DNA from: Escherichia coli | GTDB lineage: Bacteria > Pseudomonadota > Gammaproteobacteria > Enterobacterales > Enterobacteriaceae | DNA length: 64,000 bases | Assembly (NCBI RefSeq): GCF_011045215.1 | Contig: NZ_CP049201.1 | Strand: one strand, 5' to 3' | Shown here: piece by piece, positions 6,241-6,426 of the stretch | How positions within the stretch are numbered: position 1 is the first letter of the stretch | How the letters are laid out: the number at the start of each line of letters is the position of its first letter | The notes under the pieces: model-generated | What the model was told of the DNA's origin: nothing | What the model saw: only the letters and a program-made list of their open reading frames with translations | The model's database searches: none | Translations under genes and position numbers: made by a program

Positions 6241-6426
6241 TGCCGGGTGCGGCGTAAAAAACCAGCAATTTCAATGAGATTGTAGGCCTGATAAGACGCG
6301 TCAAGCGTCGCATCAGGCAGTTGGGCACGGCTGCCGGATGCGGCGTAAACGCCTTATCCGGCCTACAAAACCAGCAGTTTCAACGGATTGTAGGCCTGAT
6401 AAGACGCGTCAGCGTTGCATCAGGCA
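6241..6426. repeat. REP/BIME cluster (several REP palindromes) in the convergent ssuB-pepN intergenic region
   Basis: Repeated gtaggcctgataagacgcgtca...gcatcaggc and gccggatgcggcgtaaacgccttatccggcctac motifs in two tandem ~90-bp units. Confidence 0.85.

Follow-up and report, generated by a model that had tools for sequence, protein, structure and literature searches.

The spacer that separates ssuB from the convergent pepN gene in the stretch of Escherichia coli DNA analysed here (64,000 nt in length, hereafter the window) is very probably occupied by a bacterial interspersed mosaic element (BIME) built of repetitive extragenic palindromes (REPs) of the Y and Z2 types, which represents one allele of an old dimorphism, differs between strains in its tandem units, and whose REP hairpins we propose to provide the 3' ends of the ssuB and pepN mRNAs. 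Based on the open reading frames (ORFs) and on the RefSeq annotation of matching E. coli genomes, ssuB, encoding the ATPase of an aliphatic sulfonate ABC transporter (255 aa), is located at 5471..6238 on the plus strand, and pepN, encoding aminopeptidase N (870 aa), at 6435..9047 on the minus strand, with 196 nt between them. A first-pass annotation of the sequence had placed a BIME at 6241-6426 between the two genes, and these coordinates are exact, as they extend from the first base of a half Y REP to the last base of the second of two Z2 REPs. The two tandem REP-containing units of about 90 bp that it had described measure 91 and 95 nt here, the first being truncated, and the full unit found in longer alleles is 109 nt.

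The spacer contains 3.5 REP palindromes in the order half Y(-), linker, Z2(+), linker, Y(-), linker, Z2(+). The half Y REP (6241..6257, minus strand) begins 2 nt past the ssuB stop codon and was recognized as a direct repeat with 6332-6349; it comprises the left arm alone (TGCCGGGTGCGGCGTAA), and the alignment of the two units shows that the right arm and the CTAC head, together 18 nt, are missing. This truncation beside the ssuB stop codon is constant in all BIME alleles examined. It is followed by the first copy of the head-side linker (6258..6281, 24 nt, AAAACCAGCAATTTCAATGAGATT), a direct repeat with 6367-6389, and by the first Z2-type REP (6282..6319, plus strand, GTAGGCCTGATAAGACGCGTCAAGCGTCGCATCAGGCA), a palindrome with a GTAG head that is of the same sequence type as the 'Z2' of the REP325 array and has a predicted hairpin of -21.8 kcal/mol on the plus and -21.3 kcal/mol on the minus strand. 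Next is a tail-to-tail linker of 12 nt (6320..6331, GTTGGGCACGGC), which is aligned to positions 32-44 of the Rfam naRNA4 model, is similar to the 'l' linker of REP325 and recurs between the units of 3-unit and 5-unit alleles. The full Y REP (6332..6366, minus strand, TGCCGGATGCGGCGTAAACGCCTTATCCGGCCTAC) is an inverted repeat with a GTAG head on the minus strand, matching the Y head exactly, and a predicted hairpin of -21.3 / -20.9 kcal/mol. The second copy of the head-to-head linker, as read from the sequence (6367..6389, 23 nt, AAAACCAGCAGTTTCAACGGATT), is unique within the window and leads to the second Z2-type REP (6390..6426, plus strand, GTAGGCCTGATAAGACGCGTCAGCGTTGCATCAGGCA), identified by the repeats, its GTAG head and a hairpin of -20.4 / -17.4 kcal/mol, the stem of which comes within 9 nt of the pepN stop codon. 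The last 8 nt before this stop codon (6427..6434) form a short tail, TGTTTGTA, which in alignments is 8 nt shorter than the tail of the common allele, TTTTGGCTCAAAAGTA; the latter looks like a remnant of the tail-to-tail linker.

Expressed in 109-nt repeats, the array of the window amounts to 1.75 units. In a global alignment, unit 1 (6241-6331) and unit 2 (6332-6426) match at 73 of about 77 ungapped columns (~95%), with one additional gap of 18 nt where the first Y REP lacks its right arm. A repeat search of the spacer returned direct repeats of 26 nt (100%), 25 nt (88%), 18 nt (94%) and 16 nt (94%), with starts spaced by 91 or 107-109 nt, as well as inverted repeats of the REP type. Tandem Repeats Finder did not report any repeat in the spacer, as is expected for fewer than two copies separated by an 18-nt indel. 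Three full REPs have GTAGGCC heads (6282 on the plus, 6366 on the minus and 6390 on the plus strand), all REPs lie between the two stop codons, and each is predicted to fold on either strand (-17 to -22 kcal/mol), leaving an internal mismatch in the hairpin. Compared with shuffled sequences, the folding of the whole 3' region yields z = -8.2 for the plus and -5.5 for the minus strand. Two ORFs run across the REPs (6158-6328 on the minus and 6321-6578 on the plus strand) and were deemed spurious.

The palindromes belong to the genomic REP family, and the agreement is far beyond chance: they are imperfect, about 35 nt long, carry the conserved GTAG head, reside outside genes and are highly repeated. 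In a survey set of 5,426 complete E. coli genomes, a query of 499 nt that crosses the spacer and contains the cluster matches at 172,120 places in 5,425 of the genomes, with a median of at least 32 places per genome. The alternating orientation of the REPs, together with head-side and tail-side linkers that are each recurrent, is that of a BIME. BIME-1 elements are single copies of z1 and y REPs whose conserved L linker often contains a site for the integration host factor (IHF), BIME-2 elements consist of z2 and y REPs in tandem copies, and atypical BIMEs are chimeras that also occur in tandem, the copy number differing between strains (PMC3333891). The Z REPs of the spacer differ from the REP325 'Z2', a label that follows PMC4550694, by one extra loop base, and 2, 3 and 5 units of 109 nt are found in different Escherichia genomes. 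Given these REP325-type Z2 REPs, a linker unlike that of BIME-1 and the tandem copies, we class the element by its sequence as a Y/Z2 BIME, BIME-2 or atypical, rather than a BIME-1.

The REP325/naRNA4 array of K-12 (yjdM-yjdN; RF02564), the sequence of which was read in MG1655, is similarly composed of alternating Y and long Z REPs in tandem units of about 100 nt, and its tail-to-tail linker is nearly identical (AACGGTGCCGAC in REP325, GCCGTGCCCAAC in the ssuB-pepN BIME, same strand). In contrast, the head-to-head linker of 17 nt (AAATTCCCGCACCCTCC) is shorter than the 23-24 nt between ssuB and pepN, corresponding linkers having 15 nt at malE-malF and 12 nt in unit 2 of strain GPEC1446; REP325 has 6 units compared to 1.75 in the window, and it is located between co-directional, not convergent, genes. 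REP325 supplied the Y-l-Z2 unit from which the naRNA4 model was made, and RF02564 detects a Y-linker-Z2 pair in pepN-sense order at 6285..6363 (minus strand), overlapping the full Y REP, the tail linker and the first Z2 REP. The match covers the full model (1-77) with 89.6 bits at a gathering score of 59.5 (E = 4e-17). It might be speculated that a nucleoid-associated small RNA similar to naRNA4 is cut as a Y-linker-Z2 RNA from pepN read-through, binds HU and bridges DNA cruciforms. The full-length match above threshold on the pepN-sense strand is in line with this idea, as is a predicted fold into two hairpins, which resemble the Z2 and Y needed for HU-mediated condensation, and most REPs are transcribed (PMC4550694). 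However, the naRNA4 model amounts to a generic Y-linker-Z2 BIME unit, a match to which shows family resemblance rather than a function; the scan of window 5900-6800, which takes in the spacer and its surroundings, returned 0 promoter-like sites; and this BIME is missing from 58% of the E. coli genomes, among them K-12, the strain used to study naRNA4, so that such a role would be dispensable here. HU binding and nucleoid effects belong to REP325/naRNA4, to which the ssuB-pepN BIME is likened by sequence only, and we regard a role of this kind as highly improbable.

From the long linker, the element had initially been read as a BIME-1/RIP (RIB) element, the main role of which would be IHF binding at the Y-Z1 linker at the 3' ends of transcription units. 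The stretch TTTCAACGGATTG in linker copy 2 differs from the IHF core consensus WATCAANNNNTTR by one mismatch, the linkers are long, a related long linker exists at trpR-yjjX, and BIME-1 linkers often contain IHF sites (PMC3333891). A genuine BIME-1 is present in the same window at 15210-15305 between aspC and gloC and allows a direct comparison. Both elements have head-to-head inverted REPs with a long linker at convergent 3' ends, but the BIME-1 is a single-copy element that combines a short Z REP with a conserved linker of about 35 nt containing an IHF site, whereas the ssuB-pepN element has the long Z2 of the REP325 type, an unrelated linker, and 2-5 tandem copies of its unit. Moreover, the IHF-like core occurs in copy 2 of the window variant alone, its spacing being disrupted in copy 1 as well as in the common alleles (CAACGGAGTTG, CAACGGACTTG), and a match with one mismatch to so short a consensus is weak evidence. 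The comparison with REP325, the BIME-1 of the window and the lack of conservation of the IHF-like match led us to discard this reading, which we now consider most improbable. The BIME at trpR-yjjX is composed of Z2, a 12-nt tail linker, Y, a long head linker (AAATACCAGCAATATCAATATGTTTG) and Z2, and shares with ssuB-pepN the linker family AAA(N)ACCAGCA..TCAA; it differs in that its linker is only ~65-70% alike by eye, in that there is no half REP at a stop codon, and in being another locus.

The first-pass annotation had predicted that the spacer is polymorphic in length, and had counted a lack of variation between strains as one half of what would argue against its interpretation. The comparison across E. 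coli genomes instead revealed large variation, with spacers of 42, 193-206, 314 and 533 nt and, additionally, alleles interrupted by IS1397. The 499-nt query was covered to at least 80% in 2,063 of the 5,426 genomes, and in most others the flanks match but span 345 nt. A query for the BIME junction was found in 2,178 genomes, one derived from the 5-unit allele in 2,228, and one specific for the alternative, terminator allele in 3,173 genomes, K-12 included, with one copy each. Hence, the BIME is present in ~41% and the terminator allele in ~58% of the genomes, and both together account for ~99.5%. The main polymorphism is the presence or absence of the BIME versus the terminator allele, and it also affects the last 38 nt of ssuB.

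K-12, O157:H7 and E. fergusonii carry the alternative allele, the spacer of which has only 42 nt, ATTCCCCGAATGGCGGCGCTATTGCCGCCATTCGGTTATTTA. According to the alignment, the divergence between the alleles begins within ssuB, where the last 38 nt (6201-6238) are allele-specific, and extends precisely to the pepN stop codon. Between the window and MG1655, the first 730 nt of ssuB are 97.9% identical and the last 38 nt 52.6%; the corresponding values are 79.2% and 71.1% for the window versus Citrobacter, and 79.9% and 52.6% for MG1655 versus Citrobacter. The outgroup locus was that of Citrobacter werkmanii, the sole useful one from an SsuB scan dominated by unrelated ABC ATPases. At the protein level, SsuB of the window terminates in ..RRHG and that of MG1655 in RGESETRLRKQG (RLRKQG end). 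As a protein search and the cluster members show, ..RRHG is the usual SsuB C-terminus in Citrobacter, Lelliottia, Trabulsiella, Leclercia and Pluralibacter, and the BIME allele has therefore retained the ancestral enterobacterial end of ssuB, the terminator allele being a replacement.

A terminator scan of the K-12 allele identified two sites, one per strand. The first is a 13-bp stem followed by TTATTTAT; the second, a small hairpin with TTTTCTCAGG behind it, is on the opposite strand, and its T-tract lies inside the rewritten last codons of ssuB, which explains why the replacement reaches into the gene. In E. fergusonii (CP057104.1; 1531-1610 of the extracted stretch), this module is identical to that of K-12 MG1655 at 79 of 80 nt (38/38 in ssuB and 41/42 in the spacer), while the flanking ssuB and pepN are ~95% identical to those of E. 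coli. Since the module is so much better conserved than flanks that differ by ~5%, this suggests either cross-species exchange or a strong or unusual constraint. The spacer of C. werkmanii contains an unrelated intrinsic terminator and a single Y REP. By eye only, the hairpin of K-12 (CCGAATGGCGGC/GCCGCCATTCGG, left arm CCGAATGGCGGCG; K-12-type spacer, 451-492) is similar to the left arm of this Citrobacter Y REP (CCGGATGGCGGCG; 2302-2345, both positions referring to extracted stretches). The K-12 terminator might be a REP-derived hairpin that was made perfect. Some database entries of SsuB extend beyond the normal stop into the spacer (e.g. ...RLRKQGVNSPNGGAIAAIRLFIKPVLW); they represent either variants of the stop codon or artefacts of annotation in which the hairpin is read through.

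Terminator allele and BIME occupy the same place between the stop codons, both provide a stable hairpin on either strand, and both presumably do the same job of ending transcripts. They differ in that the terminator allele has a perfect GC stem of 12-13 bp with T-tracts on both sides, 42 nt in length and with a single genomic copy, whereas the BIME allele spans 193-533 nt and has hundreds of relatives, and its REP stems are imperfect and lack T-tracts. The BIME array expands, contracts and decays between strains and is the positional alternative to the bidirectional terminator. Unit numbers were taken from the record spans of the matches listed, as BLAST coverage is unsuited for this purpose because repeated units reuse the same subject. 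The common form of the BIME allele has a spacer of 205-206 nt with two units, the first truncated, and was read in C8 and A10; O104:H4 and O121:H19 were placed in this form by a match span of 363 nt, not by reading their spacers. The 196-nt form of the window, with two units and the short tail, is shared by 6 genomes at an identity of at least 99%, the best match being OkiPb01695. In CFT073, LF82 and GW-AmxH19, which are identical to one another, the spacer has 194 nt and the last Z2 lacks its right arm, and in GPEC1446 (193 nt) the linker of unit 2 is swapped for a 12-nt linker. Longer arrays are found in N96, with three units in 314 nt (189-502 of the extracted stretch), and, with five units in 533 nt, in two contigs whose SsuB protein is labelled MULTISPECIES Escherichia by NCBI (1569-2101 of the extracted stretches).

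In two further genomes, 2017C-4173W12 (NZ_CP030768.1) and AST240 (NZ_AP043633.1), the BIME is interrupted by an IS1397 of 1,432 nt that lies within the last Z2 REP's loop, with a duplication of 3-4 bp and at the position ...GACGCGTCA, then the insertion sequence, then (G)TCAAGCG...; the AST240 copy corresponds to 2868-4299 of the extracted stretch, and the spacer of this strain contains an additional chimeric REP. IS1397 is known to target REPs at their loops (PMC1525189). The two copies are 99.3% identical and have opposite orientations, and are therefore independent insertions into the same REP loop. A further difference concerns the unit-1 half-Y arm (6241-6258): the window variant has ...GGCGTAAA there, as on the loop side of unit 2 (6332-6349), and in other alleles unit 1 has ...GGCGCACA and unit 2 has ...GGCGTGAA. 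This resemblance of the unit-1 arm of the window to unit 2 suggests local homogenisation (conversion) between the two units in the lineage of the window.

With respect to its origin, the array may have been built and varied by REP-specific recombination, either through the REP-associated tyrosine transposase (RAYT/TnpA-REP) or by slippage or unequal exchange between units. In vitro, this enzyme cuts BIMEs and recombines them (PMC3333891), and Y and Z2 REPs lie on either side of its gene (PMC2817692). With respect to its function, no intrinsic-terminator pattern, that is, a GC-rich hairpin plus T-tract, was detected in window 5900-6800 or in the common BIME allele (0 sites each); the last REP is followed by ATGTTTGTA, a weak T-tract at best. 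Thus, the transcripts of ssuEADCB and of pepN would both have to run into the array, and the REP hairpins would be the sole candidates for defining their 3' ends. Three stable REP hairpins, available on both strands, might attenuate read-through and block 3'-to-5' exonucleases and might thereby determine where both mRNAs end and stabilise these 3' ends, as has been shown for the closely similar malE-malF REPs. PMC12306157 lists attenuation, an exonuclease barrier and an effect on translation within 15 nt of the stop codon as roles of REPs, and refers to literature according to which the malE-malF REPs stabilise the upstream mRNA. The REP pair at malE-malF is made up of a Y REP, a short A-rich linker starting with AAAACC and the same long Z REP, with hairpins just past the stop codon as in ssuB-pepN, and in genomes without the ssuB-pepN BIME it is the best match to the Y-linker-Z2 junction (~82% identity). 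It differs, however, in its 15-nt linker and its intra-operon location, where it differentially stabilises the upstream cistron, whereas the ssuB-pepN BIME lies at the ends of two convergent units. In the window variant, the last REP, 9 nt from the pepN stop codon, would also fall within the range of <16 nt in which a REP, as stated in PMC12306157, has been reported to reduce translation of the upstream gene. At the DNA level, a Y/Z2 array between convergent genes would be a plausible gyrase site, as BIME-2 arrays are preferred sites of gyrase (PMC6379681), the published maps coming from K-12, which lacks this BIME. Based on these analogies, a role at the 3' ends of the ssuB and pepN mRNAs is plausible. 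The anatomy agrees with the proposal of the first-pass annotation that the cluster can serve both genes as an mRNA stabiliser or a terminator, given a terminator in the other allele and no intrinsic terminator in the BIME alleles.

Several points weigh against a 3'-end role and the classification behind it. Each functional step proposed for the ssuB-pepN BIME is carried over from other REPs, and REP hairpins without T-tracts are weak terminators alone. The locus tolerates 2-5 units, a last REP without its right arm (CFT073 and LF82), a 1.4-kb IS1397 or no BIME at all, which argues against strong selection on the exact architecture and would fit a largely neutral or selfish element. The distance of 9 nt between pepN stop codon and REP is limited to a rare variant (6 genomes), the common allele having 17 nt. 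Finally, the equation of short Z with 'Z1' and of long Z with 'Z2' depends on the labels of PMC4550694 and on an older nomenclature that we assume to correspond. It is conceivable, and to us a serious possibility if not the probable one, that the BIME is selfish or neutral repeated DNA without an adaptive role for ssuB or pepN, that the convergent spacer simply tolerates insertions, and that any effects on 3' ends are incidental. The extreme polymorphism, with presence or absence, varying unit numbers, arm deletions, a linker swap and IS1397 insertions, would agree with this, as would the truncated first REP, which is kept in all alleles, and the ties of the REP family to a dedicated transposase-like enzyme. 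On the other hand, the BIME alleles possess no intrinsic terminator, which leaves the REP hairpins as the sole structured candidates to end two convergent transcripts, and REPs of the same types stabilise the upstream mRNA at malE-malF, as cited in PMC12306157. A selfish or neutral origin also overlaps with the explanation that we prefer, a Y/Z2 BIME whose hairpins serve as 3' ends, since it disputes selection and not mechanism.

Presence/absence and copy-number polymorphism of BIMEs and the targeting of REPs by IS1397 are established phenomena, and in this respect the element is an ordinary BIME. A literature search on pepN, ssuB and REP did not retrieve any paper describing the ssuB-pepN BIME. 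In a study on K-12, ssuB was described as convergent to pepN with no annotated terminator (PMC9410904); such findings on the ssuB-pepN junction of K-12 are not transferable to the ~41% of strains with the BIME. Going further, one might hypothesize that the junction represents a long-lived functional dimorphism in which two non-homologous 3'-end modules segregate at ~58:41 in E. coli, an idea that we put forward as doubtful. By their sequences, the two modules would be a compact bidirectional terminator with its pepN-side T-tract in a rewritten SsuB C-terminus, and an expandable Y/Z2 array with the ancestral C-terminus. If the modules differ in read-through, mRNA stability or local supercoiling, the locus would offer a natural swap of BIME and terminator alleles, as thousands of E. 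coli carry either a terminator or a REP array of 2-5 units between otherwise near-identical flanks. Well-studied strains exist on each side, K-12 and O157:H7 with the terminator and CFT073, LF82, O104:H4 and O121:H19 with the BIME. A comparison of 3' ends, mRNA stability, convergent read-through and gyrase occupancy across the alleles would bear on the question of how a REP cluster compares to a real terminator.

Our analysis also covered two further elements of the window. The canonical single-copy BIME-1 at 15210-15305 consists of a short Z REP, a 35-nt linker (GCGTCCCCTGCAATATTTTGAATTTGCACGATTTT, 15240-15274) and a Y REP, and is flanked by convergent ORFs for an aromatic aminotransferase of 396 aa (aspC by gene order) and a GloB-like protein of 215 aa (gloC). 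The Rfam family ES036 (RF02751) matches its linker on the minus strand (15232-15274, 53 bits). The gloC-aspC spacer of CFT073 has 49 nt with a plain terminator-like hairpin and without the BIME-1, and the element is thus likewise subject to a presence/absence polymorphism. In addition, a full-length match to Rfam STnc130 (RF02084) with 140 bits is located at 57331-57465 on the plus strand.

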